Assembly (NCBI RefSeq): GCF_022846255.1
Contig: NZ_AP025682.1
Source of the DNA: Escherichia coli
Lineage (GTDB): Bacteria; Pseudomonadota; Gammaproteobacteria; Enterobacterales; Enterobacteriaceae
Reading direction: 5' to 3' (one strand)
DNA length: 64,000 nucleotides
Shown: positions 3,840 through 53,604 of the stretch, piece after piece
Position numbering within the stretch: position 1 is the first letter of the stretch
Layout: every line of letters starts with the position of its first letter
The notes under the pieces: generated by a model
What the model was told of the DNA's origin: nothing
The model's input: only the letters and a program-made list of their open reading frames with translations
Databases searched by the model: none
Translations under genes and position numbers: made by a program

Positions 3840-4858
3840 TGAACCAACGTAATGCTTCAATGACTGTGATCGGTGCCGGCTCGTACGGCACCGCTCTTGC
3901 CATCACCCTGGCAAGAAATGGCCACGAGGTTGTCCTCTGGGGCCATGACCCTGAACATATCGCAACGCTTGAACGCGACCGCTGTAACGCCGCGTTTCTC
4001 CCCGATGTGCCTTTTCCCGATACGCTCCATCTTGAAAGCGATCTCGCCACTGCGCTGGCAGCCAGCCGTAATATTCTCGTCGTCGTACCCAGCCATGTCT
4101 TTGGTGAAGTGCTGCGCCAGATTAAACCGCTGATGCGTCCTGATGCGCGTCTGGTGTGGGCGACCAAAGGGCTGGAAGCAGAAACCGGACGTCTGTTACA
4201 GGACGTGGCGCGTGAGGCCTTAGGCGATCAAATTCCGCTGGCGGTTATCTCTGGCCCAACGTTTGCGAAAGAACTGGCGGCAGGTTTACCGACGGCCATT
4301 TCGCTGGCCTCGACGGACCAGACCTTTGCCGATGACCTCCAGCAATTGCTGCACTGCGGCAAAAGTTTCCGCGTTTACAGCAACCCGGATTTCATTGGCG
4401 TGCAGCTTGGCGGCGCGGTGAAAAACGTCATTGCCATTGGCGCGGGGATGTCTGACGGTATCGGTTTTGGCGCGAATGCGCGTACGGCGCTGATCACCCG
4501 TGGACTGGCTGAAATGTCGCGTCTTGGCGCGGCGCTGGGTGCCGATCCTGCCACCTTTATGGGCATGGCGGGGCTGGGCGATCTGGTGCTTACCTGTACC
4601 GACAACCAGTCGCGTAACCGCCGTTTTGGCATGATGCTCGGTCAGGGCATGGATGTACAAAGCGCGCAGGAAAAGATAGGTCAGGTGGTGGAAGGCTACC
4701 GCAATACGAAAGAAGTCCGCGAACTGGCGCATCGCTTCGGCGTTGAAATGCCAATAACCGAGGAAATTTATCAAGTATTATATTGCGGAAAAAACGCGCG
4801 CGAGGCAGCATTGACTTTACTAGGTCGTGCACGCAAGGACGAGCGCAGCAGCCACTAA
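3839..4858 (+). CDS. gpsA: NAD(P)H-dependent glycerol-3-phosphate dehydrogenase (339 aa)
   Basis: [36 protein letters not shown]...; the ATG overlaps the secB stop (ATGA-type coupling). Confidence 0.97.
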
Positions 4859-4937
4859 ACCCAGGGAACCTTTGTTACCACTATGACCCGGCCCGCGCAG
4901 AACGGGCCGGTCATTATCTCATCGTGTGGAGTAAGCA

Positions 4938-5759
4938 ATGTCGTGTGAAGAACTGGAAATTGTCTGGAACAATATTAAAGCTGAAGCCAGAACGCTGGCG
5001 GACTGTGAGCCAATGCTGGCCAGTTTTTACCACGCGACGCTACTCAAGCACGAAAACCTTGGCAGTGCACTGAGCTACATGCTGGCGAACAAGCTGTCAT
5101 CGCCCATTATGCCGGCTATTGCTATCCGTGAAGTGGTGGAAGAAGCCTACGCCGCCGACCCGGAAATGATCGCCTCTGCGGCCTGTGATATTCAGGCGGT
5201 GCGTACCCGTGACCCGGCGGTGGATAAATACTCAACCCCGTTGCTATACCTGAAGGGTTTTCATGCTTTGCAGGCGTATCGCATCGGTCACTGGTTGTGG
5301 AATCAGGGCCGTCGCGCGCTGGCTATTTTTCTACAAAACCAGGTCTCTGTAACGTTCCAGGTTGATATTCACCCGGCAGCAAAAATTGGTCGCGGTATCA
5401 TGCTCGACCACGCGACAGGCATCGTCGTTGGTGAAACGGCGGTGATTGAAAACGACGTGTCGATTCTGCAATCCGTTACCCTTGGCGGTACGGGTAAATC
5501 TGGCGGAGACCGTCACCCGAAAATTCGTGAAGGCGTGATGATTGGCGCAGGCGCGAAAATTCTCGGTAATATTGAAGTTGGGCGCGGCGCGAAGATTGGC
5601 GCAGGTTCCGTGGTGCTGCAACCGGTGCCGCCGCACACTACTGCCGCTGGCGTTCCGGCACGCATTGTCGGCAAGCCGGATAGCGATAAACCGTCAATGG
5701 ATATGGATCAGCATTTCAACGGCATTAACCATACGTTTGAGTATGGTGATGGGATCTGA
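4938..5759 (+). CDS. cysE: Serine O-acetyltransferase (273 aa)
   Basis: MSCEELEIVWNNIKAEARTLADCEPMLASFYHATLLKHENLGSALSYMLANKL... with hexapeptide repeats. Confidence 0.97.
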   Translation: MSCEELEIVWNNIKAEARTLADCEPMLASFYHATLLKHENLGSALSYMLANKLSSPIMPAIAIREVVEEAYAADPEMIASAACDIQAVRTRDPAVDKYSTPLLYLKGFHALQAYRIGHWLWNQGRRALAIFLQNQVSVTFQVDIHPAAKIGRGIMLDHATGIVVGETAVIENDVSILQSVTLGGTGKSGGDRHPKIREGVMIGAGAKILGNIEVGRGAKIGAGSVVLQPVPPHTTAAGVPARIVGKPDSDKPSMDMDQHFNGINHTFEYGDGI

Positions 5760-5773
5760 CATTCTGTGATCGT

Positions 5774-5807
5774 GCCGGATGCGGCGTGAACGCCTTATCC
5801 GGCCTAC
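5774..5807. repeat. REP (repetitive extragenic palindrome) element between convergent cysE and trmL
   Basis: gccggatgcggcgtgaacgccttatccggcctac, the canonical enterobacterial REP core. Confidence 0.85.
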
Positions 5808-5813
5808 CGCATC

Positions 5814-6287
5814 TTAATCTCTCAACACCGCTCCCGGATATCCCAGCTGCCGCCAGGCTTCATACACCACGACCGACACCGCATTGGACAGGTTCATGCT
5901 GCGGCTGTCCGGCACCATTGGAATGCGAATTTTTTGTTCAGCGGGCAGGGCATCAAGAATGCTCGCTGGCAGGCCGCGTGTTTCCGGGCCGAACATCAGA
6001 TAATCGCCATCCTGATAGCTTACGGCGCTGTGAGCAGGCGTACCTTTCGTGGTGAGGGCAAACAGACGCTGGGGATTTTCTGCTTCGAGAAACGCGCGAT
6101 AGTCATGATGACGCGTAACGGCGGTAAACTCGTGATAGTCCAGCCCCGCGCGGCGCAGGCGCTTATCGTCCCAGGCAAATCCCATCGGTTCGATGATATG
6201 CAGACGAAAGCCGGTATTAGCGCAAAGACGGATGATGTTGCCAGTATTTGGCGGAATTTCTGGTTCGTAAAGTACGATGTTTAGCAT
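5814..6287 (-). CDS. trmL: tRNA (cytidine34/5-carboxymethylaminomethyluridine34-2'-O)-methyltransferase TrmL (157 aa)
   Basis: [37 protein letters not shown]... (SPOUT methyltransferase). Confidence 0.95.
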
Positions 6288-6359: not shown

Positions 6360-7550
6360 CTATGCCGCATTCCCTTTCGCCATCGGAGCTAGTGCCGCAG
6401 GCAATTCTTTATCCAGCCCTTGCACCAGCGAATCTTGCGTAATTTCGCTAATCGATTTCGCGCCAGTCAGCGTCATCGCCACTTTCATCTCTTTTTCGAT
6501 CAGATTTAGCAGGTTAGCTACACCCGCCTGGCCCGCTGTTGCCAGCGCATACAGGAAAGCACGACCCAGCAGTACGGTGTCGGCACCGAGCGCAATCATA
6601 CGCACGACATCAAGCCCGTTACGTATTCCGCTATCCGCCAGAATGGCGATATCACCTTTCACCGCATCTGCAATAGCGGGCAACGCACGAGCGGAAGAGA
6701 GTACACCGTCCAGCTGGCGGCCACCGTGGTTAGAAACCACAATCCCATCAGCACCAAAACGTACTGCATCGCGCGCATCTTCCGGATCGAGGATCCCTTT
6801 GATCACCATCGGGCCATCCCAGAAATCGCGGATCCACTCAAGGTCTTTCCATGAGATGGACGGATCGAAGTTATTCCCCAGCCAGCCGATGTAATCTTCC
6901 AGTCCGGTCGGTTTGCCGAGATAAGCTGAGATATTACCTAAATCATGCGGACGACCGTTCAGGCCCACATCCCACGCCCATTGCGGATGCGTCACCGCCT
7001 GCAAATAGCGGCGCATTGCCGCGTTCGGGCCGCTCATCCCAGAATGCGCATCACGATAACGCGCTCCCGGTGTTGGCATATCCACGGTGAAAACCAGTGT
7101 CGAACAACCCGCTGCTTTTGCTCGCTCCAGTGCGTTACGCATAAAGCCGCGATCGCGCAGCACATAAAGCTGGAACCACATCGGACGTTTGATAGCCGGA
7201 GCCACTTCTTCAATCGGGCAAACGGAAACCGTCGAGAGAGTAAACGGAATGCCATGCGCATCCGCTGCTTTGGCAGCCTGAACTTCGCCGCGTCGCGCAT
7301 ACATGCCACACAAACCTACCGGACCTAGCGCCACCGGCATCGACAATTTCTCATTAAACAGCGTCGTTTCCAGGCTTAAGTCAGACATGTTTTTCAGAAT
7401 ACGCTGGCGCAGCGCCACTTCTGACAAATCTTCCACGTTGCGGCGCAGCGTGTATTCAGAATATGCACCCCCATCCATATAGTGGAACAGGAACGGCGGC
7501 AGAATGCGTTGCGCTGCGGCGCGATAATCGCTGGCTGCGGAAATAATCAT
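6360..7550 (-). CDS. lldD: L-lactate dehydrogenase, FMN-dependent (396 aa)
   Basis: [38 protein letters not shown]...; last gene of lldPRD. Confidence 0.97.
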
Positions 7551-8323
7551 GCGTTTTTCTCCCTCGAATGCTCATTATGGTCACCAGGCAGGCGGGTAAT
7601 GCGTGCATGGCGAGCCTGATCTTCATCGAATCGTTTCATGGTGGTGTGAACAAAGCTAAGGTGCGCCATCATTGCTTTACGCGCCCCGTCAGCATCACCG
7701 GCAAAAATGGCGTCAATGACTGCCTGATGTTGTTCGGTCAGCTGTGAAAAAACCGGGGGTACCAGATACATCCGCTGGCGGCTATGCTTCACGGAGGATT
7801 GCAGGACATCGAAGAAACCGCGCATGGTTTGCAGCAGCACGATGTTATGTGAGGCTTCGGCAATCGCCAGATGAAAACGAACGTCCGCTTGTGAGGCGAG
7901 ATCCGGGTCTTCACTTAGCGTTGCTTCAAAGCAAAGCTGAATCTTTTCTTTTTCGCCAGGTGTGGCGCGCATTGCCGCATGCCACGCGGTGCTGGCTTCA
8001 ATGGCGTAGCGGGCTTCCAGAATATCGAAACTGTAATCCGGATCATCGGCCATCAGCGTTTTCAGCGGCTGGACGATGTTTTGCTCCGACCATGTGTCAT
8101 GACGCCAGCGAATAAACGTCCCGCCGCCACGTCGACTGAGCAGCACACCTTCGCTTACCAGTTTCGCCAGCGCCTCGCGCAGTGAATTTCTCGACACGCC
8201 GAGTTGCATCGCCAGTTGACGTTCAGCGGGCAACTTCATGCCCGCTTCCAGGTTTTTTTCATCAATCAGCGCCCGCACACGATCGGCAACCTCGTCTGAC
8301 AGGCGTCTGGGTAAAACAATCAT
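7547..8323 (-). CDS. lldR: GntR-family L-lactate regulator LldR (258 aa)
   Basis: [55 protein letters not shown]...; start set at the internal ATG for the known length; overlaps the lldP stop by 1 nt and the lldD start by 4 nt. Confidence 0.93.
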
Positions 8324-9978
8324 TAAGGAATCATCCACGTTAAGACATAGGCCTGAAGCGTGGTGATCACGCCCACCATACAGGTGAAGATCAGGCTGTG
8401 TTTGACAGTAAAGCGGAACAAATCAGACTCTTTGCCCACCAGGCCTACCGCCGCACAGGCGATAGCGATAGATTGCGGAGAGATCATTTTGCCGGTGACA
8501 CCACCGGTGGTGTTGGCAGCAACCAGCAACAGGTCAGAAACGCCAATTTGTTGTGCGGCGGTAGCCTGCAAAGCGGCAAACAAAGCATTAGATGACGTAT
8601 CCGACCCGGTCAGGAATACCCCAAGCCAGCCGAGGAACGGCGAGAAGAAGGTGAATGCATGACCGGTGTGCGCCAGTGCCAGCGCCAGTGTTGATGACAA
8701 ACCGGAATAGTTCGAGATAAAGGCGAACGCCAGCACCATACCGATGGAGTAGATAGGCAGAGCCAGTTCTTTCAGCGTGCTGCCGAAGGTGCTGATAGCG
8801 TCAGATGGTTTCATCTTCAGCCAGACAATCGAGAGCAGGGCAGCAAAAAGAATGGCGGTACCGGTGGCAGAGAACCAGTCAAACTTAAACACGGCGGCAT
8901 ACGCTGTCGCTTCGCTGACCACTGGCGGCATACGGGCAACCAGTTTATCGAGGTACGGCACCGGAATGTTGATCACCCACTCATACAGCGCACCGCCTGA
9001 AGCGAACAGGGCTTTAAACGGCGGGATACTCCACAGCGTTACGGTGGCGGTCAGGAACAGAAACGGTGTCCAGGCGCGCAGCACCTGACCTGCCGTGTAA
9101 CCTGTGTGAGCCAGCGTCATATCAACCTGTGACGCCCCCAAGTCACCGAAGCGGAATACGCGCACTGGTTGCCAGCGTTTGAGGAACAGCGTCAGGCAGA
9201 GCAGTGATACCAGCGAAGAGATAATGTCTGGCAGTTCCGGCCCAATGAAGTTAGAGCTGAGGTATTGAGCAATGGCAAACGAACCACCTGCAACCACGAC
9301 CGCAGGCCACGTCTCTTTGATACCGCGCCAACCGTCCATAATCGCCATGATCCAGAACAGCACGATAATGGTCATAAACGGCAGCTGACGCCCCACCATC
9401 TGACCAATCTCAAAGCTGTCGATGCCTGTTACCTGCCCGGCGACCAGAATCGGAATACCCATCGCGCCAAATGCCACTGGTGCGGTGTTAACAATCAGGC
9501 ACAGTCCGGCGGCGTAGAGTGGTTTAAAGCCCAGACCGACCAGCAATGCGGCGGTAATTGCTACCGGTGCGCCAAAGCCTGCGGCTCCTTCAAGGAAAGC
9601 GCCGAAACAGAAACCGACGATCAGCATTTGCAGGCGCTGGTCAGGGGTTATCGAAAGAATAGACGAGCGAATGATGTCAAACTGCCCGGTTTTCACCGAG
9701 ATCTTATAGACGAACACCGCTGCAATAATGATCCACGCGATGGGCCACAACCCGTAGAAGAAGCCATAAACCACCGAGGCCAGCGCGTTAGCGACCGGCA
9801 TTTTATAGAACAGCAAAGCCACGGCAAGGGCGATTGCCACCGTCCATGAGGCGGCGACGTATCCTTTCAGTTTGAGCTTAATCAGCGCAAAGAAGAAAAA
9901 CAGGATGGGAAGCGATGCTATCAGGCTGGAAAGCCAGATATTCCCGGCGGGATCGTAGTTTTGTTGCCAGAGATTCAT
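8323..9978 (-). CDS. lldP: L-lactate permease (551 aa)
   Basis: [40 protein letters not shown]...; multi-pass membrane protein; start chosen for the known length. Confidence 0.95.
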
Positions 9979-10176
9979 TGCAGGTCTCCTGCAGTCCACA
10001 CACGCCGTGTAATGAGTCTGTTGCTCATCTCCTTGTCACACGTTGTGTAAAAGTGGCACTGCCAATTGTGTTGTGTAGGGATAATGACAATGGATAGTTA
10101 ACTAAATGTTATGCATTAGCAACATTGATGTGAGTTTTAATTGGGGAATTGTGAACCAGAGGTCAGATAAGCGAAG

Positions 10177-10193
10177 AATTGGTAGGGCCAATT
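10177..10193. promoter_or_regulatory. Candidate LldR/PdhR-type operator in the lldP promoter region
   Basis: Inverted repeat aattggtagggccaatt (AATTGG-N5-CCAATT), resembling the FadR-subfamily GntR operator consensus AATTGGT-N3-ACCAATT; about 200 bp upstream of the lldP start. Confidence 0.5.
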
Positions 10194-10217
10194 CTGGGAG
10201 AGGGGTAATGAAGAAAA

Positions 10218-10243
10218 GGGCAATTCCCATCAGAGAATTGCCC
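10218..10243. promoter_or_regulatory. Second palindrome in the lldP upstream region (possible second operator)
   Basis: gggcaattc-N8-gaattgccc inverted repeat; function inferred from position only. Confidence 0.3.
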
Positions 10244-10269
10244 TCAGATTGTTGATCTGGTGCGCCTTA

Positions 10270-10362
10270 TCTTGCCGGATGCGGCGTGAACGCCTTATCC
10301 GGCCTACAGGGTAGTGCTGAATCACCCCGTAGGCCTGATAAGCGTAGCGCATCAGGCAATGT
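10270..10362. repeat. Pair of REP elements (BIME-like) between the adhesin 3' end and the lldP promoter
   Basis: gccggatgcggcgtgaacgccttatccggcctaca followed by an inverted copy, gtaggcctgataagcgtagcgcatcaggcaatg. Confidence 0.85.
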
Positions 10363-10389
10363 GGCGTTTACCCATTTGTTAATGGATCA

Positions 10390-28434: not shown

Positions 28435-29730
28435 ATGGCTATCAAATCACCTCCCGGACTTATTCCTTTATCACACTTATCGGGTGAGGAACTCCTGGCC
28501 CACCTGCGCTTTAACCGGGTTACCGATGAAAAAGGACGTTATCTGCCTTTTGATGAGTTGCAGTACCGCATCAAAAAAGGAGAAAACGTCGATGTGGCGT
28601 GGACGCTTACCCGTCTGGCGCGCAACGCGGCGATCCAACGAATTAATTATTGCAATGAAGCGGGTGAACAGGCCGGATTCAACATTACCCCGGTGATTGC
28701 AGAAGCGTGCGAGCTTGTCGACAAACGTGCTACCGCGCTGGCGCTGAAAGATCAGACTGAACGGTTACGCGGGGCCGGAGCCGAGTTAAGCCAGTTACGC
28801 CTGGAAGAGCCGATCACCAGCTCCCAGCTGGAAGGTGCGAATACTACAACGCTGGTGGCGAGAAAAATGCTGGAAACAGGGCGGTCGCCACGCACTGAAG
28901 ACGAGCATATGATTGCGGGAAATGCCCGGCTGATGGCGGAAATTCCGCACTTACTCGCAGAACCGCTGACACCTGCGCTTATTCGCCAGTTACATGCCAT
29001 TGGTATGGGTGGAATCAATGACGCGAAATATCGTCCGGGAGAATTTCGTGAAACAGATGATGTTGTGATCGCCGACTATGATGGCAATATAGTGCATCAA
29101 CCGCCCGCTGCGGCATTGTTACCGGAACGGCTGGAAAAAGTTTGCCAGTGGTTAAACAGCCATGAAGGGTATATTCATCCGTTGGTCCGTGCCTGCATTC
29201 TGCATTTTATGCTGGCCCATGAACATCCGTTTCGGGATGGCAACGGGCGCACCAGTCGGGCGCTGTTTTACTGGTATATGCTGAAATCGGGCTACGATGT
29301 CTTTAAATATATTTCCATCAGCCGTTTGCTTCATGCTGCACCGGTCAAATATGCCGCCAGCTACCAGTACACTGAATCAGATGGTATGGATCTGACTTAT
29401 TTCCTTGAATATCAGGCGGGTGTCATTAAACGTGCTCTGCAAAACTGGCAGCAGCATATCGATGAAATTACACAACGAAGCGCAAAACTCGATAGTGTGC
29501 TGTTTAGCTCTGGTGTGCTTAAACGCCTGAATCCGCGCCAGGTAACGCTCCTGAATGTGATGCTCGCCAATCCGGGGAAAGAGTACACAGTTGCTGAAAT
29601 TAGCGCGAGCCTGGGCGTCTCTGATAATACGGCTCGAGCTGATTTACGGACAATTGTTAAAGAAGGATTCGCGCAAGAGAAAAGAATTAATAACCAGCAA
29701 GCAGTGTACGTCGCACACTACCCGCTGTAG
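28435..29730 (+). CDS. Fic-domain protein (431 aa), class II (internal inhibitory motif), with C-terminal winged-helix-like domain
   Basis: Canonical Fic active-site motif [14 protein letters not shown] (HPFx[D/E]GNGRxxR); upstream SSQLEG matches the inhibitory-helix motif [S/T]xxxE[G/N]; C-terminal segment ...[29 protein letters not shown]... looks like a helix-turn-helix. Confidence 0.85.
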
Positions 29731-29837
29731 CTTTTGCCCGTAAATTCGTGATAGCCGTCGTAAAGCTGTTACCGGCTGGCGAAGATTTCGCCAGTCACGT
29801 CTACCCTTGTTATACCTCACACCGCAAGGAGACGATC

Positions 29838-31376
29838 ATGACCAATAATCCCCCTTCAGCACAGATTAAGCCCGGCGAGTATGGTTTCCCCCTCAAATTA
29901 AAAGCCCGCTACGACAACTTTATCGGTGGCGAATGGGTAGCGCCTGCCGATGGCGAGTATTACCAGAACCTGACGCCGGTGACCGGGCAGCTACTGTGCG
30001 AAGTGGCGTCTTCGGGCAAACGAGACATCGATCTGGCGCTGGATGCTGCGCATAAAGTGAAAGATAAATGGGCGCACACCTCGGTGCAGGATCGCGCGGC
30101 GATTCTGTTTAAGATTGCCGATCGAATGGAACAAAACCTTGAACTTTTAGCGACGGCAGAAACCTGGGATAACGGCAAACCCATTCGCGAAACCAGTGCT
30201 GCCGACGTGCCGCTGGCGATTGATCATTTTCGCTATTTCGCCTCGTGTATTCGGGCGCAGGAAGGTGGGATCAGTGAAGTGGATAGCGAAACCGTGGCCT
30301 ATCATTTCCATGAACCGTTAGGCGTGGTGGGGCAGATTATCCCGTGGAACTTCCCGCTGCTGATGGCGAGCTGGAAAATGGCCCCCGCGCTGGCGGCGGG
30401 CAACTGTGTGGTGCTGAAACCCGCACGTCTTACTCCGCTTTCTGTACTGCTGCTAATGGAAATCGTCGGTGATTTACTGCCGCCAGGGGTGGTGAACGTG
30501 GTCAATGGCGCAGGTGGGGAAATTGGCGAATATCTGGCGACCTCGAAACGCATCTCCAAAGTGGCGTTTACTGGCTCAACGGAAGTGGGCCAACAAATTA
30601 TGCAATACGCCACGCAAAACATTATTCCGGTGACGCTGGAGCTGGGCGGCAAATCGCCAAATATCTTCTTTGCTGATGTGATGGATGAAGAAGATGCCTT
30701 TTTCGATAAAGCGCTGGAAGGCTTTGCACTGTTTGCCTTTAACCAGGGCGAAGTTTGCACCTGTCCAAGCCGTGCTTTAGTGCAGGAGTCTATCTACGAA
30801 CGCTTTATGGAACGCGCTATCCGCCGTGTCGAAAGCATTCGCAGCGGTAACCCGCTCGACAGCGTGACGCAAATGGGCGCGCAGGTTTCTCACGGGCAAC
30901 TGGAAACCATCCTCAACTACATTGATATCGGTAAAAAAGAGGGCGCTGATGTGCTCACCGGCGGGCGACGCAAGCTGCTGGAAGGCGAACTGAAAGACGG
31001 CTACTACCTCGAACCGACGATTCTGTTTGGTCAGAACAATATGCGCGTGTTCCAGGAGGAGATTTTTGGCCCGGTGCTGGCGGTAACCACCTTCAAAACG
31101 ATAGAAGAAGCGCTGGAGCTGGCGAACGATACGCAATATGGCCTGGGCGCGGGCGTCTGGAGCCGCAACGGTAATCTGGCCTATAAGATGGGGCGCGGCA
31201 TTCAGGCTGGGCGCGTGTGGACCAACTGTTATCACGCTTACCCGGCACATGCGGCGTTTGGCGGCTACAAACAATCAGGCATTGGCCGCGAAACCCACAA
31301 AATGATGCTTGAGCATTACCAGCAAACCAAGTGCCTGCTGGTGAGCTACTCGGATAAACCGTTGGGGCTGTTCTGA
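29838..31376 (+). CDS. aldB: Aldehyde dehydrogenase B (512 aa)
   Basis: [51 protein letters not shown]...; the track ORF is extended upstream, start set at the ATG at 29838. Confidence 0.95.
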
Positions 31377-31422: not shown

Positions 31423-32118
31423 CTACTGCCCGTAATAGGCATTGGCCCCATGCTTACGCAGGTAGTGCTTATCCAGCAGTTCGTTTTGCATCGCAGGGAG
31501 CTGTGGCGCAAGCTGGCGCGAGAACAGACCCATATAGGCGCACTCTTCCAGTACCACGGCGTTATGCACCGCATCGGCGGCATTTTTTCCCCAGGCGAAC
31601 GGGCCGTGAGAATGCACCAGTACCGCCGGGATTTGTGCCGGGTTCAACCCACGCTCTTCGAAGGTTTTAATGATCACTTTGCCGGTCTGGTATTCATACT
31701 CGCCGTTGATCTCTTCTGCGGTCATCAGGCGCGTGCAGGGGATGGCTCCGTAAAAATAATCGGCGTGAGTAGTGCCCCAGGCGGGGAGATCAAGTCCGGC
31801 CTGCGACCAGATGGTGGCGTGGCGCGAGTGGGTATGCACTATGCCGCCAATCTCCGCAAAGCGACGGTAAAGCGCCAGATGCGTTGGCGTGTCGGAAGAG
31901 GGCTTTTTGCTGCCTTCCACCACCTTGCCGCTGGCTATCTCAACCACCACCATATCGTCGGCGGTCATTACCTCATACTCAACGCCGGAAGGCTTAATCA
32001 CCATCCATTGCCGCGTTTCGTCTATCGCGCTGACATTGCCCCAGGTGAACGTCACCAGATGATGAACGGGAAGCGCCAGGTTTGCCGCCAGCACGTCGGC
32101 TTTCAGTTGCTCTAACAT
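31423..32118 (-). CDS. sgbE: L-ribulose-5-phosphate 4-epimerase SgbE (231 aa)
   Basis: [80 protein letters not shown]... Confidence 0.95.
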
Positions 32119-32972
32119 ATAAATCCGGCCTCCTGCATACGCGCTTCAATCCAGCGCCGCGCCTGAATAATCTCCAGCACCGGCTCTTTGGCTTTTTCGG
32201 TCCACATCTCAATCAGGAAAGAACCGCGATAGTTCAGCTCATGCAGCGTTTTGAAGATGCCAACAAAATCGACACAGCCTTCGCCAAACGGCACATCGCG
32301 GAACTGTCCGGGGCTATGTTTGGTAACGGGTTGAGTGTCTTTCAGGTGGATGGCGGCGATACGGTCGATGCCCAGTTTCAGTTCGGCGGGAACATCATTG
32401 CCCCAGGCGCTGAGATTGCCTACGTCCGGGTAAACGGTGAACCACGGTGACGCAAGCATTTCGTCCCACTTTTTCCATTTGCTGATAGAGTTCATAAACG
32501 CGGTGTCCATAATCTCCACCGCCAGCATGACTTGTGATGCCGCTGCCTGTTCAACCGCCCACGCCAGCCCTTCAGCAAACCGTTGCTGGGTGCCTTCGTC
32601 ATGATCCTCGTAATAGACGTCGTAACCTGCCAGTTGAATAGTACGAATGCCGAGATCGCGCGCCAGGCGAATCGCTTTACTCATAATCTCCCGCGCCCGC
32701 TGGCGCACGGCGTCGTCCCGGCTACCAAAAGGAAAACGACGATGTGCGGACAGGCACATTGACGGAATAGCAACACCCGTTTCGATCATCGCAGTGACCA
32801 GCGAAGCACGTTGTGCGGCGCTCCAGTCAAGACGTGACAACCGTTCGTCGGTTTCATCCACCGACATTTCGACAAAATCAAAACCACAGCTTTTTGCCAG
32901 CACCAGCCGCTCCGGCCAGGAGAGATCTTTCGCCAGCGCTTTTTCATAAATGCCTAACGGATGATTACGCAC
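32112..32972 (-). CDS. sgbU: L-xylulose-5-phosphate 3-epimerase SgbU (286 aa; start inferred as GTG)
   Basis: ...[49 protein letters not shown]...; the track ORF runs 30 codons further upstream and the start choice is uncertain. Confidence 0.85.
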
Positions 32973-33627
32973 GCTTGCCTCCCCAGATGGAGTCGATTTG
33001 CGCATGGAAATCGCCAGCCACTTGCGCCGGATTTGCTGCGCCTGCCAGCGCCCGTCCGGCAATAAACGCTTTCACGCGGATCTCTTTAAACAGCGGCAGG
33101 TCAGCAGGGGTAATCCCGCCGGTAATGGAAAGCTCAAGGCCGATATCGGAAAGCGCTTTCATGCGTGCCAGATCGGCCTCGCCCCACTGTTGCCCGCTGG
33201 CCTGCGCGTCACGACCACGATGATAAATCGCCTGTCGTACACCAATACGATGCCAGTCACGGGCGTCGTCCAGCGTCCAGTTGCCGAATAGCTCGATCTG
33301 AATTTCACCGCCGCAGTTCTGTGCCATCGCGTGGCCTTTTTCCACCGTGGCGAGCGGCGCGGCGCAGATGATGGTCATCCAGTTAGCGCCTGCGCCAAAT
33401 GCCTGTTGCGCGAGCGTTTCACCCGCGTCGGCGACCTTCCAGTCGGCAACGATGATTTTGTCAGGGCACTGTTCGCGCAAGGCTTTCACGGCGCCAAGCC
33501 CTTCGTTTAAACAGAGAATGGTGCCTGCTTCGACAATATCGACGCTGTCTTTTAACCGCGTCACGTCGCGCTGCGCGGCTTCAAGTGATGAGTGGTCGAG
33601 GGCCAGTTGCAGAAGTGGTCGACTCAT
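32965..33627 (-). CDS. sgbH: 3-keto-L-gulonate-6-phosphate decarboxylase SgbH (220 aa)
   Basis: [95 protein letters not shown]... Confidence 0.95.
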
Positions 33628-35120
33628 AATGTGTGCTCCTTGATGCGGGCGTGATAACCCTGAAGTGCGGCAATGAGATGTTGATAGCGTTGGTATTTTT
33701 GTTGGTAAAGCTGATGCGCGGCCATATCCGGCTGCAGGGTGCGTACCGGGTGTCGCAAGTCACGTTGGGCTTCGCTGAAATCGCGATAAACCCCGGTACC
33801 GACGCGGGCGGCAAGTGCCGCACCAAAGCAGCCGGTTTCTTCCACCTGCGGCAGCTCGATACGCAGACCGCTGACGTCCGCCAGCATTTGCATCCAGACA
33901 TCGGAGTGCGCCGGGCCGCCAGTGACGCGCAGGGTGTGCACATCAATAAAACGTTCGCGCATCCGGTTGAGATGGGTCATATGGCTGAACACCACCCCTT
34001 CATAGACAGCCTGTAAGAGGTGTGCACGGGTGTGAATGGCCTGCATCCCGTAGAAACCGCTGGTCATTTCGAGTCCGGCGTTGCTGCCGTACAGGAACGG
34101 CAGGAAAAAGAGATCGCCACCGGCTTTCGGCAAACTGGCAACGGCCTGATTAATCTCAGCAAATGAGATTTCTCCCCACTGTGCGGTAAACCATTCGAGA
34201 TTGCCGGAAGAGGTGGGGCTGGCTTCGTGAACGATAAATTGACCATCGTTAACGTAGCGACCATAGACATACGGATGCGCTTCACCGTCACGTAAACCGT
34301 GGGTTATGCCGCTGGTCACCGCCCAGGTCCCCATCACCGCATTGAGGGTGAATTCGTCTTCGAGCCCGGCGCAGAGTGCGGTGGAAACCACATCAAACAG
34401 GCCGCCGACAACGGGGGTACCTGCTTTCAGACCGGTCAGTACGGCTGTCTGAGCGGTGATTTCCCCGCAGATTTCGGCAGATCCGACAACAGGCGGCAGG
34501 GCGTGATTGATTTCAGCAATCCCCAGCCAGTCGGTAAGGCACGGGTCATATTCCCCGCGACTCATGTTGTAGAGATTGGACTCAGAAATATTGCTCTCTT
34601 CGCAACCTTTGACGCCGGTTAAACACCAGCGCAGGTAGTCGTGCGTCATCATCACGCAGCCAATTTGCGCGTAGCGTTCTGGTTCGTGCTCTTTCAGCCA
34701 GCGTAACAGCGACACCGGATGCCCGGTCCATAAGGTTTGTCGGGTCAGCGGATAGAGTTTTTCCGGGATGCCATCTTCCTGCCAGCGACGAACGATTTCC
34801 ATCGCCCGGCGATCCGAGGACAAAATGGCGTTACCGAGCGGTTTGTCGTTTTTATCAAGTAGAAATAAGCCCTTTCCCTGCGCGGAGATGCCGATACCGA
34901 CAATTTGTTCCCCGCTGACGCCGGAATGGGTAAGCAGGGCGCGAATGACAGCAGTGCAACATTGCCACAGTTCTGCCATGTCGCGCTCTGCCCAGCCTGG
35001 CTGTGGACTTAATGCGCACAGCGGCAGGCGCTGCACGCCCGCCTCCCGGCCTTCTCGGTCATACAGCCCGGCTTTCAGCCAGCTACCGCCACAATCTAAC
35101 CCCAGCCAGTATTGCGTCAT
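33624..35120 (-). CDS. lyxK: L-xylulose / 3-keto-L-gulonate kinase LyxK (498 aa)
   Basis: MTQYWLGLDCGGSWLKAGLYDREGREAGVQRLPLCALSPQPGWAERDMAELWQ... (FGGY sugar kinase). Confidence 0.95.
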   Translation of the reverse strand: MTQYWLGLDCGGSWLKAGLYDREGREAGVQRLPLCALSPQPGWAERDMAELWQCCTAVIRALLTHSGVSGEQIVGIGISAQGKGLFLLDKNDKPLGNAILSSDRRAMEIVRRWQEDGIPEKLYPLTRQTLWTGHPVSLLRWLKEHEPERYAQIGCVMMTHDYLRWCLTGVKGCEESNISESNLYNMSRGEYDPCLTDWLGIAEINHALPPVVGSAEICGEITAQTAVLTGLKAGTPVVGGLFDVVSTALCAGLEDEFTLNAVMGTWAVTSGITHGLRDGEAHPYVYGRYVNDGQFIVHEASPTSSGNLEWFTAQWGEISFAEINQAVASLPKAGGDLFFLPFLYGSNAGLEMTSGFYGMQAIHTRAHLLQAVYEGVVFSHMTHLNRMRERFIDVHTLRVTGGPAHSDVWMQMLADVSGLRIELPQVEETGCFGAALAARVGTGVYRDFSEAQRDLRHPVRTLQPDMAAHQLYQQKYQRYQHLIAALQGYHARIKEHTL

Positions 35121-35123
35121 GGT

Positions 35124-36110
35124 TTATTGCACCTCATCCACGGCTTTCAGCAGATCAGCACCCTGCGGAACATCTTTAACAAACATGTCACGGACCTGGG
35201 TACCCAGCGTATCGCTAAAGGCTTTGCGGTCGAGATCGGTGATGACTTCCACGCCCGCTTCTTTCATACCGTCGATGATTTTTTGCTGATCTTCGGCGAC
35301 CAGTTTGCGCTGATAGCTACCCGCTTCCTGTGCAGATGAGATCAGTGCTTGCTGGAACTCCGGGGTTAAGCCATCAAACTTCGCTTTGTTGATCACCACC
35401 AGAAGCGGCGAATAGGCGTGATGGGTCAGAGAAAGGTACTTCTGCACTTCATAAAATTTTGCTGACCAGACGACGTTGATCGGGTGTTCCTGAGCGTCGA
35501 TAGTGCGGGTTTCCAGCCCGGTATAGACTTCGGCAAACGGCATCGGGATCGGGTTAGCGCCAAAAACTTTAAATGCAGCGATATTCATCGGGCTGTTGTT
35601 GGTGCGGATTTTCAACCCTTTCAGGTCGGCAGGCGTTTTGACCGGTGCACGCGAGTTGGTGACATCGCGCCAGCCGTTTTCCCAGTAGGCCAGTACTTTC
35701 AGCCCCTTACCTTCAAGGGAGACTTTCAGGTCATCACCGACTTTGCCGTCGAGCGTTTTATGCGCGTGAGCGGTATCGCGGAACAGGAACGGGACATCGA
35801 GCAGGTTGATGACGGGCGAGAGTCCCGTAAAGTTGTTAGAGCCAGACATCTCCATATCAATAGTGCCGCCACGCACGCCGCTGATCATCGCCTGCGCATT
35901 ACCAAGGGTGCTATCCGGGAACAGTTTTAATTTCAGTTCGCCTTTGGTTTTTTCCTGCAGTAATTCATTAAATTTTTTCGCCGCAATATGTTGTGAATCG
36001 GTTTGTGAGGTTTCATAACCGAAACGTAATGATTGTGCCGCCAGAGAAGATGTGCTGAACGTCGCCACTCCGGCAATTAATAAAGCGTAGGTTACAGAAC
36101 GTAATTTCAT
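35124..36110 (-). CDS. yiaO: TRAP transporter substrate-binding protein YiaO (328 aa)
   Basis: MKLRSVTYALLIAGVATFSTSSLAAQSLRFGYETSQTDSQHIAAKKFNELLQEKTKGELKLKLFPDSTLGNAQAMISGVRGGTIDM... Confidence 0.95.
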   Translation of the reverse strand: MKLRSVTYALLIAGVATFSTSSLAAQSLRFGYETSQTDSQHIAAKKFNELLQEKTKGELKLKLFPDSTLGNAQAMISGVRGGTIDMEMSGSNNFTGLSPVINLLDVPFLFRDTAHAHKTLDGKVGDDLKVSLEGKGLKVLAYWENGWRDVTNSRAPVKTPADLKGLKIRTNNSPMNIAAFKVFGANPIPMPFAEVYTGLETRTIDAQEHPINVVWSAKFYEVQKYLSLTHHAYSPLLVVINKAKFDGLTPEFQQALISSAQEAGSYQRKLVAEDQQKIIDGMKEAGVEVITDLDRKAFSDTLGTQVRDMFVKDVPQGADLLKAVDEVQ

Positions 36111-36122
36111 TATGATTTCCTT

Positions 36123-37400
36123 TTAACTCATCCATTTAAGAGGAGCGGTAATGAGCTCCGGTATAAAAATAAATAATGCTAACAACATGAATAAAACCAT
36201 GACGTAAGGCGCAACGCCTTTTACCGCATCGTCAAATTTAAGTTTCGCCACGCCGCATACCACGTTAAGAACATTACCGACTGGAGGCGTAATCAGTGAT
36301 ATTGAACAGTTGATAATAAACATGATGCCGAAATAGACCGGATCTATTCCCGCTTCTTTCACTAATGGCATTAATACTGGTGTAAGAATTAATACGGTAG
36401 GCGTTAAGTCCATGACCGTACTGATCACCATAATAGCGAGCATAATGACGATGAATAATAAGCGAGGCGAATCAACCAACGGTTGTAATAGCTCCGATAC
36501 CATCATGGGTAATTCGGCGATCGTAATAAGCCATGCAGATACCGCAGCAGAGGCCACCAGGAACATCACCACGGATGTGGTTTTTGCCGCGTTAATCAGC
36601 ACATGATAAAGCGTGGAGAAGGTCATCTCGCGATAGACCACCACCGAGACGAACAGAGCGTAGAAGGCGGCAACCGCGCCTGCTTCGGTCGGTGTAAATA
36701 ACCCCGAACGGAAACCGCCAATAATAATTATCGGTAAAAAGAGCGCCCAAATACCGGAAACTAAGGATTGCCAGACTTCTCGCAGTGAGGCTTTCGGCTG
36801 ACAAGGTAAATTCAGTCGTTTTGCCTGCCACCACCAGGTAACCATCAGCGTGACGCCCATCATGATGCCTGGCGCAATGCCCGCCATAAACAGTTTGCTG
36901 ATGGAGAGTCCGCTGGAGACGCCGAAGATAATGAGTGGTATGGAAGGCGGGATAATGGCCGCAATAATCCCCCCGGAACCGATAAGCCCGGCGGCGCGGT
37001 TTACCGGATAGTTGGCCTGGCGCATCATCGGCACCAGCAGCGCCGCGACAGCTGCGGTATCAGCAACCGCAGAACCGGACAGGCTTGCCATGATCATCGC
37101 TGCCAGCACGCCCACGTAACCCAGACCGCCTGGCCTGTGGCCTACCAGTTTCATTGGCAAGTCGACGATACGTTGCGACAGGCCGCCCGCGTTCATGAGC
37201 TCACCCGCCAGTACAAAGAAGGGGATGGCTAACAGGGAGAAGCTGTCTGCGCCATTTACCAACGTTTGTGCCAGAATTTGCACATCAAAGATATCCATCC
37301 AGAACATCAATGAAATGCCGCACAGTAATAATGCCCAGGCGATGGGAACGCCAATTGCGATAGCCCCTAACAAACTGACAATAAATATAAGGATTGTCAT
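36123..37400 (-). CDS. yiaN: TRAP transporter large permease YiaN (425 aa)
   Basis: MTILIFIVSLLGAIAIGVPIAWALLLCGISLMFWMDIFDVQILAQTLVNGADSFSLLAIPFFVLAGELMN...; the track ORF is extended upstream, start at the ATG at 37398-37400. Confidence 0.93.
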   Translation of the reverse strand: MTILIFIVSLLGAIAIGVPIAWALLLCGISLMFWMDIFDVQILAQTLVNGADSFSLLAIPFFVLAGELMNAGGLSQRIVDLPMKLVGHRPGGLGYVGVLAAMIMASLSGSAVADTAAVAALLVPMMRQANYPVNRAAGLIGSGGIIAAIIPPSIPLIIFGVSSGLSISKLFMAGIAPGIMMGVTLMVTWWWQAKRLNLPCQPKASLREVWQSLVSGIWALFLPIIIIGGFRSGLFTPTEAGAVAAFYALFVSVVVYREMTFSTLYHVLINAAKTTSVVMFLVASAAVSAWLITIAELPMMVSELLQPLVDSPRLLFIVIMLAIMVISTVMDLTPTVLILTPVLMPLVKEAGIDPVYFGIMFIINCSISLITPPVGNVLNVVCGVAKLKFDDAVKGVAPYVMVLFMLLALFIFIPELITAPLKWMS

Positions 37401-37402
37401 CG

Positions 37403-37870
37403 TCAGGCTCCTTGTTGGTTTCGGCTGGGGGTATTTGTGAACTGCCGGTATAAGTGACGCAATTCCAGCAATGCGATAATCAGACTGGTGGGGATAGCGG
37501 CGGCGTACATTAAGCCAACGGGGACGCCAAGAATGGGCGATAAGTTGCTCCAGTCTTGCGCTGTTTTTTCTATAGCGCCCCAGGCCAGCCCCAGACACAG
37601 CAATAAAATGAGCGTATGGGTTAGCAGCGAAACACGTTGTTGATTAGCCGGTGAGAGTTTTTCGACTAAAAAAGTAACCTGCACATGGCTGTTGTCCATA
37701 TAAGCAACGATTGCGCCAATAAAGGTTAACCAGACAAATAAAAGTCGGGATAATTCATCAATCGATAATATACTTGTGTGGAATCCATATCGAAGAATAA
37801 TATTAATAAAAATAATACAAGACAGTATTGCGATGATGATCGCAAGAATGCCTTCGAGTATCCGTTTCAT
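37403..37870 (-). CDS. yiaM: TRAP transporter small permease YiaM (about 155 aa)
   Basis: [72 protein letters not shown]... Confidence 0.92.
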
Positions 37871-37983
37871 AACGAGTCCTTCTGGTTATGCAATATTTTT
37901 TATGCGCTAATGTTGTTAATATTCGTAATAATTATCAGAAAACGGCTAATTAGATATTCAAAGTGATATATAAATGGTTCTGT

Positions 37984-38904
37984 TTAACGAGATTCATTCA
38001 GAGAGTGAATGCCGTTGCGTAATATTTCGATGCGATGGTGCACATCAGCCGTCGCATTTATTTCCAGTAGCTTGATCCCAGCAAAATGCAATGTTGACGA
38101 TTCTGCTACATTAAATAACTCGCGAACATGATCTGTGGTCATCAGGCTTTCTGCGCAGAATGGTGCAAACGGTGCGTGTAAATCCTGCCATTCGCCGTAT
38201 GCCCCGTTTAGCGTCGTACCAGAGAACATTAACGCGCCGAGTTTTCCGGCTTGTTTCGCCATTTGGGTGTGGGCCAGCGGCAGCGTTGTATTGCGCCCTT
38301 CAATGGCAGAGCGCGCCCAGTTGATACAGATGCTGATGTCATAATCGGTAATAACTTCCAGCACATTTTCTAAAGGCAAAAAGCCTTTTCGGGGGGAAGA
38401 AGATGTCATGGCGTCGCAGTGTTCCAGCACCAGCTTGCACGGCCAGTCCCAACTGGCGATTTCTTTCAATGAGTGGGCAAAAGCGTCCGTCGCCTGCATA
38501 ACATTAGGATTCGTTGCTAACGGTGCAGCCTGGAGCTCCAGTGCGAGCACTTTATTAGCCTGCAATGCGTTGATTTTATTGAACAGGTGGCGATAGTACG
38601 CCACGCAGGCCTGGCGCTGTTCTTCATCACTGGAGGCGAGACCAAACCCGCTGTTTTCGCTGCGGCGACGCATGGTTTCCATCACTGCGGTGACGACAAA
38701 TTTCCAGCTCTCTGGCGTATGACGGAGTAACCATTGATCGCCCAGCGGGTGAAAATTTTCCAGGCAAGGTTGTTCCAGCCCCAAAATGTCTGGAGTCTCA
38801 GATAATTGTCGCCAGAAATCCTTCTCTTCCTCTTCACTTCTTTGGTGAAAAGAAGGTGCACAGGGATACGCGCCGATAATATAACCGGCATTATTCGTTT
38901 TCAT
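37984..38904 (-). CDS. Uncharacterised 306-aa protein inside the yiaK-sgbE operon, between yiaL and yiaM; no confident family assignment
   Basis: Uninterrupted ORF starting [60 protein letters not shown]... with GGAG 8 nt upstream of the ATG; 22 bp downstream of yiaL, same strand; no signal peptide or transmembrane segment evident; not part of the K-12 operon as I recall it. Confidence 0.75.
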
Positions 38905-38926
38905 TATGTGCTCCAGTAATCATTTT

Positions 38927-39394
<468 letters not shown>

Positions 39395-39402
39395 TTATCT
39401 CC

Positions 39403-40401
39403 TTATAACGCCTGGATTTTTGCCCACACGCTGTCATCAACGGTAATACCGTTACGGCGGTTTTCTGCCAGCAGGGTAGTAAATTCGTGGCCGGGTAAAC
39501 GAATAGCCTGGTTTTCGTCAGCACGCTCGGCACTGGTAACGTAATCCATGATGCGTTGCAGTTTGGCATCGCGGATGGGACCGTCGATAAGCTTGTCCAC
39601 TTCAATGGCAATAAAAATTTGTGAAATGCCGTATTCGTCGCTGTTGTCCTCGGTGACTTCGGCAACCGATGCGCCGTCAGAAAGGAGGGTAGCGATCATA
39701 TCCAGCACAATCGACATGCCCGAACCTTTCCAGTAGCCCATCGGCAAAATGCGGCGATTTTTCTCGATAACGCCAGGTTCTTTGGTCAAATTGCCCTCAT
39801 CATCAAAGCCACCATCTACCGGGAGCTGACGACCAGCCAGGCGATTAACTTCTAACATGCCGTAAGAGAACATCGACATCGACATATCGACCATGGTGAT
39901 CGGCGTGGAAGGAATGGCGACGATCAGCGGGTTGGTGCCGATGCGACACTCTTTTGCACCCCACGGTGGCATTACGGCGATGGAGTTGGTCCAGCAAATG
40001 CCAATATAGCCTTTTTCCGCCGCCTGCCAGCCGTAGCTGCCGCCGCGCATCCAGTGGTTGGCATTACGTAGTGCCACCAGACCAATACCGTGATCGGCAG
40101 CCAGTTCAATGGCGCGATCCATCATCTTTTTCGCTGTCAGGTTACCGATCGAACGCTGGGCGTCCCACTGTTCAATTGCGCCGAGGCTGGTTATACGTTT
40201 GGGTTGGGCATCAGGAATGATATCGCCGTTTTCCAGTTGTTGAATGAAACGAGGGAAACGATTAACGCCGTGAGAATAAACGCCGGATTCGGTGGTGCGG
40301 GCGAACATCTCTGCACAGGCGTCAGCCGTTTCGTTGTCAACGCCGCGTGAAATTAAGACCCGATTAAAGGCTGCTTTTAACTGCTCAAATGTCACTTTCA
40401 T
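39403..40401 (-). CDS. yiaK: 2,3-diketo-L-gulonate reductase YiaK (332 aa)
   Basis: [96 protein letters not shown]... Confidence 0.96.
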
Positions 40402-40601
40402 CCCAGGCTTCCTTGTTTTTTTGATCGCTTTTTTGGCTTAAAATTTCAATATACGAAACTTGATTTCAAATATATCGATCACTTTTTAACAAAGCAATCT
40501 GATTGATGAATTTCAAAAAACTTAAAAATCAAGTGGTTATAAATTATCTGTCGAGATCGTGAACTACGGCACACTTTGCGCTACCATCAGGACGCGACAA
40601 A

Positions 40602-41450
40602 ATGGGGAAAGAAGTGATGGGAAAAAAAGAGAACGAGATGGCGCAGGAAAAAGAGCGCCCAGCCGGAAGCCAGAGTCTGTTTCGTGGGTTGATGCTGATT
40701 GAGATTTTGAGCAACTATCCAAACGGTTGTCCGTTGGCGCATCTTTCGGAGCTGGCTGGTTTAAATAAGAGTACCGTCCATCGCTTATTGCAGGGATTAC
40801 AGTCCTGCGGCTATGTGACCACCGCGCCCGCCGCAGGGAGTTATCGCCTGACCACCAAATTTATTGCCGTCGGGCAGAAGGCGCTATCTTCGCTGAATAT
40901 CATTCATATCGCCGCTCCGCATCTTGAGGCTCTGAACATCGCCACTGGTGAAACTATTAACTTCTCCAGCCGCGAAGACGATCACGCTATTTTGATTTAT
41001 AAGCTGGAACCCACAACCGGGATGCTGCGAACCCGTGCCTATATAGGCCAGCATATGCCGCTCTACTGTTCCGCAATGGGCAAGATCTACATGGCGTTTG
41101 GTCACCCGGACTACGTGAAGTCATACTGGGAAAGCCATCAGCATGAGATCCAGCCGTTAACCCGCAATACCATTACCGAGCTGCCCGCGATGTTCGACGA
41201 ACTGGCGCACATTCGTGAAAGTGGAGCGGCGATGGACAGAGAAGAAAACGAACTCGGCGTCTCCTGTATTGCTGTTCCGGTGTTTGATATTCATGGGCGG
41301 GTGCCGTACGCCGTGTCGATTTCGCTTTCGACATCACGTCTGAAACAGGTGGGAGAGAAAAATCTCCTGAAACCACTTCGTGAAACCGCGCAGGCTATTT
41401 CTAATGAACTGGGATTTACTGTCAGGGACGACCAGGGCGCGATCACATAA
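40602..41450 (+). CDS. yiaJ: IclR-family transcriptional repressor YiaJ (282 aa)
   Basis: MGKEVMGKKENEMAQEKERPAGSQSLFRGLMLIEILSNYPNGCPLAHLSELAGLNKSTVHRLLQGLQSCGYVTTAPAAGSYRLTTKFIAVG...; divergent from yiaK. Confidence 0.95.
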   Translation: MGKEVMGKKENEMAQEKERPAGSQSLFRGLMLIEILSNYPNGCPLAHLSELAGLNKSTVHRLLQGLQSCGYVTTAPAAGSYRLTTKFIAVGQKALSSLNIIHIAAPHLEALNIATGETINFSSREDDHAILIYKLEPTTGMLRTRAYIGQHMPLYCSAMGKIYMAFGHPDYVKSYWESHQHEIQPLTRNTITELPAMFDELAHIRESGAAMDREENELGVSCIAVPVFDIHGRVPYAVSISLSTSRLKQVGEKNLLKPLRETAQAISNELGFTVRDDQGAIT

Positions 41451-52281: not shown

Positions 52282-53604
52282 ATGCAAGCCTATTTTGACC
52301 AGCTCGATCGCGTTCGTTATGAAGGCTCAAAATCCTCAAACCCGTTAGCATTCCGTCACTACAATCCCGACGAACTGGTGTTGGGCAAGCGTATGGAAGA
52401 GCACTTGCGTTTTGCCGCCTGCTACTGGCACACCTTCTGCTGGAACGGGGCGGATATGTTTGGTGTGGGAGCGTTTAATCGTCCGTGGCAGCAGCCTGGT
52501 GAGGCACTGGCGTTGGCGAAGCGTAAAGCAGATGTCGCATTTGAGTTTTTCCACAAGTTACATGTGCCATTTTATTGCTTCCACGATGTGGATGTTTCCC
52601 CTGAGGGCGCGTCGTTAAAAGAGTACATCAATAATTTTGCGCAAATGGTTGATGTCCTGGCAGGCAAGCAAGAAGAGAGCGGCGTGAAGCTGCTGTGGGG
52701 AACTGCTAACTGCTTTACAAACCCTCGCTATGGCGCGGGTGCGGCGACGAACCCAGATCCTGAAGTCTTCAGTTGGGCGGCAACGCAAGTTGTTACAGCG
52801 ATGGAAGCAACCCATAAATTGGGCGGTGAAAACTATGTCCTGTGGGGTGGTCGTGAAGGTTACGAAACGCTGTTAAATACCGACTTGCGCCAGGAGCGTG
52901 AACAGCTGGGCCGCTTTATGCAGATGGTGGTTGAGCATAAACATAAAATCGGTTTCCAGGGCACGTTGCTTATCGAACCGAAACCGCAAGAACCGACCAA
53001 ACATCAATATGATTACGATGCTGCGACGGTCTATGGCTTCCTGAAACAGTTTGGTCTGGAAAAAGAGATTAAACTGAATATTGAAGCTAACCACGCGACG
53101 CTGGCAGGTCACTCTTTCCATCATGAAATAGCCACCGCCATTGCGCTTGGCCTGTTCGGTTCTGTCGACGCCAACCGTGGCGATGCGCAACTGGGCTGGG
53201 ACACCGACCAGTTCCCGAACAGTGTGGAAGAGAATGCGCTGGTGATGTATGAAATTCTCAAAGCAGGCGGTTTCACCACCGGTGGTCTGAACTTCGATGC
53301 CAAAGTACGTCGTCAAAGTACTGATAAATATGATCTGTTTTACGGTCATATCGGCGCGATGGATACGATGGCGTTGGCGCTGAAAATTGCAGCGCGCATG
53401 ATTGAAGATGGCGAGCTGGATAAACGCATCGCGCAGCGTTATTCCGGCTGGAATAGTGAATTAGGCCAGCAAATCCTGAAAGGCCAAATGTCACTGGCAG
53501 ATTTAGCCAAATATGCTCAGGAACATAATTTGTCTCCGGTGCATCAGAGTGGTCGCCAGGAGCAACTGGAAAATCTGGTAAATCATTATCTGTTCGACAA
53601 ATAA
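52282..53604 (+). CDS. xylA: Xylose isomerase (440 aa)
   Basis: [104 protein letters not shown]... Confidence 0.97.

Follow-up and report, generated by a model that had tools for sequence, protein, structure and literature searches.

The closest described counterpart of the locus studied here is the yia operon of Klebsiella pneumoniae, which has been published as yiaKLX1X2PQRS and whose yiaX1 gene is termed 'chemotaxis-like' in a review (PMC4324149, citing Campos et al. 2008, J Bacteriol 190:6615). A second comparison is one of role and not of ancestry. YhcH (NanQ) is an N-acetylneuraminate anomerase supplying the open form of a 2-keto-acid sugar (PMC8141875). Like the part we propose for YiaX1, it is a dispensable helper in a catabolic operon that readies the correct form of a keto-acid sugar, and YiaL belongs to the YhcH family, but the fold of YhcH is unrelated to that of YiaX1. 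The (beta/alpha)8 fold predicted for YiaX1 is the one common to the xylose-isomerase-like superfamily, with members of which it shares 8-16% identity; this superfamily (Pfam AP_endonuc_2 and relatives) takes in XylA, L-rhamnose isomerase, the ketose 3-epimerases, IolE, IolI, YcjR, YgbM/OtnI, UlaE/SgbU and endonuclease IV. In the two-metal isomerases (XylA, RhaA/RhaI) the first metal is bound by E, E, D, D and the second by E, H, D, D, together with a catalytic His/Asp, a set that YiaX1 appears to lack, and the E-D-H-E motif of the ketose 3-epimerases (SgbU, UlaE, DPEase) is likewise not conserved in it. OtnI (YgbM) is reportedly a 2-oxo-tetronate isomerase of the L-threonate and D-erythronate pathways; it offers a functional analogy to YiaX1 only, as sequence similarity between the two is undetectable and OtnI is not the closest structural match.

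The gene described here lies between yiaL and yiaM in a 64,000-nucleotide stretch of an Escherichia coli genome (contig NZ_AP025682.1), which we call the window. It is almost certainly yiaX1, coding for a DUF4862 protein with a xylose-isomerase-like barrel. With the K. pneumoniae gene it shares the Pfam family, the slot after yiaL, the divergent IclR regulator and the downstream genes lyxK-sgbH-sgbU-sgbE. The difference lies in what follows directly, as Klebsiella continues with the MFS transporter YiaX2 whereas the window has the TRAP transporter YiaMNO.

The yiaX1 gene and its operon

The features of the locus are the following, with the genes from yiaM to sgbE mapped onto the window from the annotation of strain NC101:

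37984..38904, minus strand: yiaX1 ortholog, 306-amino-acid DUF4862 protein, predicted cytoplasmic (beta/alpha)8 barrel
38911..38914, minus strand: Shine-Dalgarno GGAG (ctcc on the plus strand), read from the sequence
37871..37983, minus strand: yiaX1-yiaM spacer, 113 bp, AT-rich (yiaM starts at 37870)
38927..39391, minus strand: yiaL (DUF386; YhcH/YjgK/YiaL family), directly upstream of yiaX1 and its companion in most species
39403..40401, minus strand: yiaK, 2,3-diketo-L-gulonate reductase (3-dehydro-L-gulonate 2-dehydrogenase), first gene of the operon
40602..41450, plus strand: yiaJ (plaR), IclR-family repressor, divergent to the operon
35124..37870, minus strand: yiaMNO, 2,3-diketo-L-gulonate TRAP transporter
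37403-37870, minus strand: yiaM
36123-37400, minus strand: yiaN
35124-36110, minus strand: yiaO
31423..35120, minus strand: lyxK to sgbE, phosphorylated part of the pathway
33624-35120, minus strand: lyxK
32965-33627, minus strand: sgbH
32112-32972, minus strand: sgbU
31423-32118, minus strand: sgbE

The ORF runs on the minus strand from an ATG to a TAA stop at 37984-37986 (306 codons), and its GGAG lies 6 nt 5' of the ATG, within the 22-bp gap (38905-38926) between it and the stop codon of yiaL (38927-38929). A preliminary description of the ORF had given the same coordinates, ribosome-binding site and distances (22 bp after yiaL, 113 bp before yiaM), and all of these match the raw sequence. 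The gene order is yiaJ on the plus strand and yiaK, yiaL, yiaX1, yiaM, yiaN, yiaO, lyxK, sgbH, sgbU and sgbE on the minus strand. A promoter and terminator scan gave counts equal to the shuffled expectation: no terminator was found in either gap flanking yiaX1, and the single promoter-like match in the 113-bp spacer is at chance level. Because of the short 22-bp gap, the shared strand and the missing terminator, yiaX1 probably shares a transcript with yiaK and yiaL that starts at the promoter controlled by YiaJ. An Rfam scan of 37300-41000 gave no match, and neither did a PADLOC scan of YiaX1 and YiaL, hence no link to a defence system was found for the two proteins. Downstream of sgbE (28435-31376) the window directly carries aldB and a Fic-family gene, as NC101 does; the same interval in K-12 (9814-13001 of the K-12 locus) holds the pseudogenes ysaC and ysaD together with yiaT, yiaU and yiaV. 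Elsewhere in the window, the N-terminus of a 1543-aa ORF (10390-15021, minus strand) resembles what we take to be the signal region of an UpaG/EhaG-type trimeric autotransporter adhesin.

The ORF at 37984..38904 is not a chance ORF, because its product matches Pfam DUF4862 (PF16154) at full length (E=6e-94, residues 9-294 against positions 1-291 of the 291 in the model), comparison with five orthologs (those of E. whittamii, E. albertii, Citrobacter koseri, Klebsiella pneumoniae and Pseudocitrobacter) puts its dN/dS at 0.07-0.11, and its AlphaFold2 model reaches a mean pLDDT of 96.3. These dN/dS values point to clear purifying selection, with yiaX1 evolving 2-3 times faster, under looser constraint, than yiaK and yiaO. 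The preliminary description had not assigned the protein to a family; the Pfam match provides one, and the gene is already annotated in more than 1000 E. coli genomes. Its reading of a protein with neither signal peptide nor transmembrane segment agrees with the hydropathy profile, in which no hydrophobic N-terminus or membrane-spanning stretch was seen (maximum 19-residue Kyte-Doolittle mean 0.97, compared with 3.2 for YiaM), and the protein is taken to be soluble. All 86 aligned relatives of YiaX1 match DUF4862, a family of 553 clusters at 50% identity. An NCBIfam scan of YiaX1 returned no family model, and we found neither a characterised DUF4862 member nor, in a literature search, a paper mentioning DUF4862 or PF16154.

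The relationship to Klebsiella yiaX1, first put forward as an analogy, turned out to be closer than that. The Klebsiella proteins are 74-75% identical to YiaX1 at 99% coverage and are encoded in the same slot after yiaL, so that the E. coli ORF is almost certainly an ortholog of yiaX1. Two Klebsiella loci read yiaJ, then yiaK-yiaL-DUF4862-MFS-lyxK-sgbH-sgbU-sgbE, and both the order K-L-X1-X2-P-Q-R-S and the 'chemotaxis-like' label of the published yiaX1, as the review gives them, agree with the DUF4862 gene. The combination of yiaX1 with a TRAP transporter, as in the window, was also found in E. albertii, E. whittamii, Pseudocitrobacter and Affinibrenneria. A survey with one genome per species returned 80 DUF4862 loci, about 70 of which have yiaK-yiaL-DUF4862, then an MFS or TRAP transporter, and then lyxK-sgbHUE. 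The genera with this conserved order include Escherichia (albertii, whittamii), Citrobacter, Klebsiella, Enterobacter, Kosakonia, Hafnia, Rahnella, Budvicia, Gilliamella, Serratia and Silvimonas. Since the order yiaK-yiaL-DUF4862 recurs in some 70 sampled species, yiaX1 is probably an old, ancestral member of the operon and the K-12 state a derived one; most Enterobacteriaceae retain the gene there. In Silvimonas terrae yiaL and DUF4862 form a separate pair (7472-8960 of its locus) divergent from yiaK-MFS-lyxK-sgbHUE, and in a Succinivibrio MAG DUF4862 follows yiaK without yiaL (4002-5987 of its locus). DUF4862 thus goes with the top of the pathway and not strictly with yiaL.

Distribution in E. 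coli and the haplotypes of the distal operon

Among 5426 complete E. coli genomes, yiaX1 was found in 1055, where RefSeq names its product 'DUF4862 family protein'. Every copy is chromosomal, full length and the only one in its genome, and none is truncated. The carriers include Nissle 1917, ATCC 25922, the ST131 strain JJ1886 and NC101, all of which we take to be phylogroup B2 strains. The direct yiaL-yiaM junction of the K-12 type is present in 3857 of the genomes; about 514 have neither yiaX1 nor this junction. At blastn sensitivity, no copy was found elsewhere in the genomes lacking yiaX1 at the operon. The preliminary description had considered the gene an additional operon member compared with K-12, and indeed yiaL and yiaM are only 117 bp apart in MG1655 with no gene between them. 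Nevertheless, yiaX1 is an already catalogued, uncharacterised operon member and not a novelty of the window: NCBI and UniRef both contain the exact YiaX1 protein, encoded on at least 1000 contigs, its ortholog received its name in 2008, and a paper from 2026 has entered an E. coli 'yiaX, putative protein YiaX1' in its mutation table. Because about 3850 E. coli genomes, K-12 included, keep the operon without yiaX1, the YiaX1 step cannot be obligatory for the operon's pathway.

Identity between the window and K-12 is 97% over the part running from ysaA to the 3' end of yiaL but only 86-88% over yiaM to sgbE (31423-37890). K-12 is less similar to the window in this latter block than E. whittamii (92.4%) and E. 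albertii (90.0%) are, and the K-12 block is 86-88% identical to the window, E. whittamii and E. albertii alike. Across the 5426 genomes the identity of the yiaM-lyxK block is bimodal, being at least 95% in 1055 genomes and about 86% in 3770, with 28 in between, and the number of genomes with at least 95% identity equals the number of yiaX1 carriers. Judging from this bimodality and the matching counts, the presence or absence of yiaX1 appears to be tied to two haplotypes of the distal yia operon that differ by roughly 14%, with a breakpoint near 37890-38940, at the yiaL/yiaX1 boundary. The pattern suggests replacement by recombination rather than simple deletion. We found no deletion scar in the 117-bp yiaL-yiaM spacer of K-12, which shows no significant similarity to yiaX1 (its score falls among those of shuffled sequences) and resembles the 113-bp spacer of the window significantly only in the last ~25 nt near the ribosome-binding site of yiaM. 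The absence of a yiaX1 remnant from the K-12 spacer is consistent with replacement by recombination.

Fold and catalytic face of YiaX1

The AlphaFold2 model of YiaX1, for which the 86-sequence alignment drawn from the 553-cluster family served as input, consists of eight beta-alpha units. In a Foldseek search against the PDB the top matches were Pseudomonas stutzeri L-rhamnose isomerase, xylose isomerases, endonuclease IV and a putative sugar isomerase (E about 1e-8, identity 10-15%), and a fold search of AFDB50 returned only uncharacterised DUF4862 entries. Sequence comparisons were far less informative. Searching the PDB with YiaX1 or with the 86-sequence profile gave no relative, only a chance match to bacterioferritin (E=0.23). 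YiaX1 itself has no match to Pfam AP_endonuc_2 (PF01261), and of its 86 relatives 4 reach E<=1e-3 and 10 reach E<=0.1 against this model. Alignment of the DUF4862 family with 66 SgbU orthologs by hhalign indicated no relationship (probability about 1%), and an hmmsearch with the DUF4862 HMM against XylA and SgbU of the window was insignificant (E=0.026 for SgbU in this two-sequence search), the insignificant SgbU alignment having a collinear register past strand 3. By its modelled structure, YiaX1 appears to be a divergent branch of the xylose-isomerase-like TIM-barrel superfamily. The guess of a TIM-barrel isomerase or epimerase made in the preliminary description was thus right in fold and superfamily, but the canonical metal ligands that such an enzyme would have are apparently not conserved.

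Fourteen residues are invariant in the DUF4862 alignment (Y13, E44, G88, P128, E161, H162, D164, K173, N195, W196, R198, D241, H243 and K278), and in the model all of them are located at the C-termini of strands or in beta-alpha loops, that is, on the catalytic face of the TIM barrel. The metal ligands of the XylA encoded in the window (52282-53604) were confirmed as E232, E268, H271, D296, D307, D309 and D339. They were mapped onto YiaX1 by motifs, spacing and strand position, as a topological inference and not a 3D superposition, with the following correspondences:

XylA IEPKP (E232): YiaX1 LEHCD (E161)
XylA IEANH (E268, H271): YiaX1 INWAR (N195, R198)
XylA VDAN (D296): YiaX1 FSG (S228)
XylA WDTD (D307, D309): YiaX1 WQDLH (D241, H243)
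XylA FDAK (D339): YiaX1 IKLL (K278)

In this topological mapping YiaX1 differs from the XylA ligand set at five of the seven positions, only E161 and the D241-x-H243 loop being retained, and two of the ligand positions are cationic. The replacements by N195, R198, S228 and K278 suggest that the metal site is altered or absent; it may hold a single metal ion or none and accommodate an anionic substrate. If the register is right, YiaX1 is unlikely to be a classical two-metal hydride-shift isomerase or an E-D-H-E epimerase, because the canonical ligands are mostly replaced.

The complete barrel with its 14 invariant residues on the catalytic face also bears on whether YiaX1 is a pathway protein at all. 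A regulatory or 'chemotaxis' function, or a gene drifting to loss, could be read from the UniProt entries that label some orthologs 'Chemotaxis protein, resembles CheA', from the review repeating 'chemotaxis-like' (PMC4324149), from the absence of yiaX1 in most E. coli and from its faster evolution compared with its neighbours. Such a function or fate can hardly be credited, however, given the barrel, the dN/dS of about 0.1 and the lack of any truncated copy among the 1055 genomes. The label 'chemotaxis protein' was itself rejected, as no CheA, HPt, dimerisation, HATPase_c or CheW Pfam domain was found in YiaX1 or its 86 relatives. The unsupported CheA-like label of the orthologs has spread to the literature as 'chemotaxis-like protein' (PMC4324149).

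Proposed role of YiaX1 and its alternatives

Distant DUF4862 homologs, at 32-40% identity, occur outside yia operons. For several the setting is a recurring cluster for glycan biosynthesis (loci L078, L084, L085 and L087, with DUF4862 at about 7000-9000 in each) made up of a PseF-like cytidylyltransferase, SDR, DUF4862, PF04199 cyclase, SDR, TIGR04425 AroB-like sugar-phosphate cyclase, a 2-hydroxyacid dehydrogenase, a GFO/IDH/MocA oxidoreductase and a SIS isomerase; NeuB and glycosyltransferases sometimes adjoin it. Catabolic settings were found as well. One such locus combines IclR regulators, an ABC sugar transporter, an SDR overlapping DUF4862, an MR_MLE dehydratase, a DHDPS-type aldolase and a PfkB kinase, a second has BNR_2, DUF4862, MR_MLE and a 2-hydroxyacid dehydrogenase, and in a third DUF4862 adjoins nagA and a permuted mutarotase. 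MR_MLE dehydratase, 2-hydroxyacid dehydrogenase and DHDPS aldolase are found across loci L093 and L094. An oxidoreductase lies at most two genes from DUF4862 in about half of the 14 contexts sampled, and in three of them (L078, L087, L093) an SDR overlaps its start codon. These contexts fit an enzyme that would act on a keto sugar or keto-sugar acid delivered by a partner dehydrogenase. Pairs of a dehydrogenase and a partner from the same superfamily that operate in this manner include IolG/IolE, YcjS/YcjR and LtnD/OtnI.

With YiaK as the partner dehydrogenase, and considering the family to which YiaL belongs, we propose that YiaX1 acts on a keto-sugar acid before the kinase. It is likely that YiaX1 is an enzyme of this pathway working at a pre-kinase stage, and as the best explanation of the whole we lean towards an accessory keto-sugar-acid enzyme of the 2,3-diketo-L-gulonate branch. 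YiaX1 would be a soluble (beta/alpha)8-barrel enzyme, accessory and non-essential, and would act early in the aerobic L-ascorbate / 2,3-diketo-L-gulonate route, on a keto-sugar acid that is not phosphorylated; its partners there would be the reductase YiaK and the putative anomerase YiaL. YiaK reduces 2,3-diketo-L-gulonate to 3-keto-L-gulonate, and LyxK, SgbH, SgbU and SgbE take over the phosphorylated intermediates. YiaX1 could, for example, interconvert isomers or epimers of 2,3-diketo-L-gulonate or of 2-/3-keto-L-gulonate via an enediolate, with the outcome that a larger share of the unstable substrate pool would reach 3-keto-L-gulonate for LyxK. That the chemistry is isomerisation or epimerisation is put forward only tentatively.

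The same fold and pathway could also serve another chemistry, with YiaX1 being a dehydratase, lyase, decarboxylase or lactone/hemiketal hydrolase whose substrate would be dehydroascorbate, 2,3-diketo-L-gulonate or one of the products into which the latter breaks down spontaneously. Such an enzyme might be metal-independent, with K278 and R198 in place of metal ions. To our knowledge, however, the established pathway of YiaK, LyxK, SgbH, SgbU and SgbE requires neither a dehydration nor a cleavage step, and we consider this chemistry rather unlikely.

A neutral-sugar aldose-ketose isomerase, converting for example L-lyxose to L-xylulose, would feed LyxK and provide the carriers with a rare-pentose route. 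Identity to the isomerases matched in the PDB is only 10-15%, and the binuclear ligand set of XylA is unmatched in YiaX1. In addition, yiaX1 is linked to yiaK-yiaL and not to lyxK, and the distant relatives are found near enzymes of sugar acids and keto sugars, not near pentose kinases, which together make a neutral-sugar isomerase very improbable. The role of an L-lyxose isomerase in particular was down-weighted in view of the absent two-metal ligand set.

A more far-reaching version of the pre-kinase role is that DUF4862 represents a barrel branch in which K278 and R198 replace the metal ions, and that YiaX1 carries out an undescribed transformation of a vitamin C breakdown product. The substrate would be 2,3-diketo-L-gulonate or a sister breakdown product, and the reaction could be, for instance, a shift between the 2-keto and 3-keto forms or an enzyme-controlled rearrangement. 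We hold this to be improbable. If true, a step so far missing from aerobic ascorbate catabolism would be defined, one that Klebsiella, Salmonella, Citrobacter and B2-type E. coli would possess and that K-12-type strains would have lost along with a recombined operon haplotype.

It seems that DUF4862, as an uncharacterised family inside an otherwise well-mapped pathway, has in yiaX1 a tractable entry point, and that E. coli provides a natural contrast for its study, since ExPEC and probiotic strains carry the gene and K-12-type strains do not. For YiaX1 as an accessory keto-sugar-acid enzyme, assignment of a reaction would make the aerobic vitamin C / 2,3-diketogulonate route complete and might explain differences between strains in the use of ascorbate breakdown products in the gut or urine. 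It would also be the first function for DUF4862, including the relatives in the nonulosonate-like glycan biosynthesis clusters.
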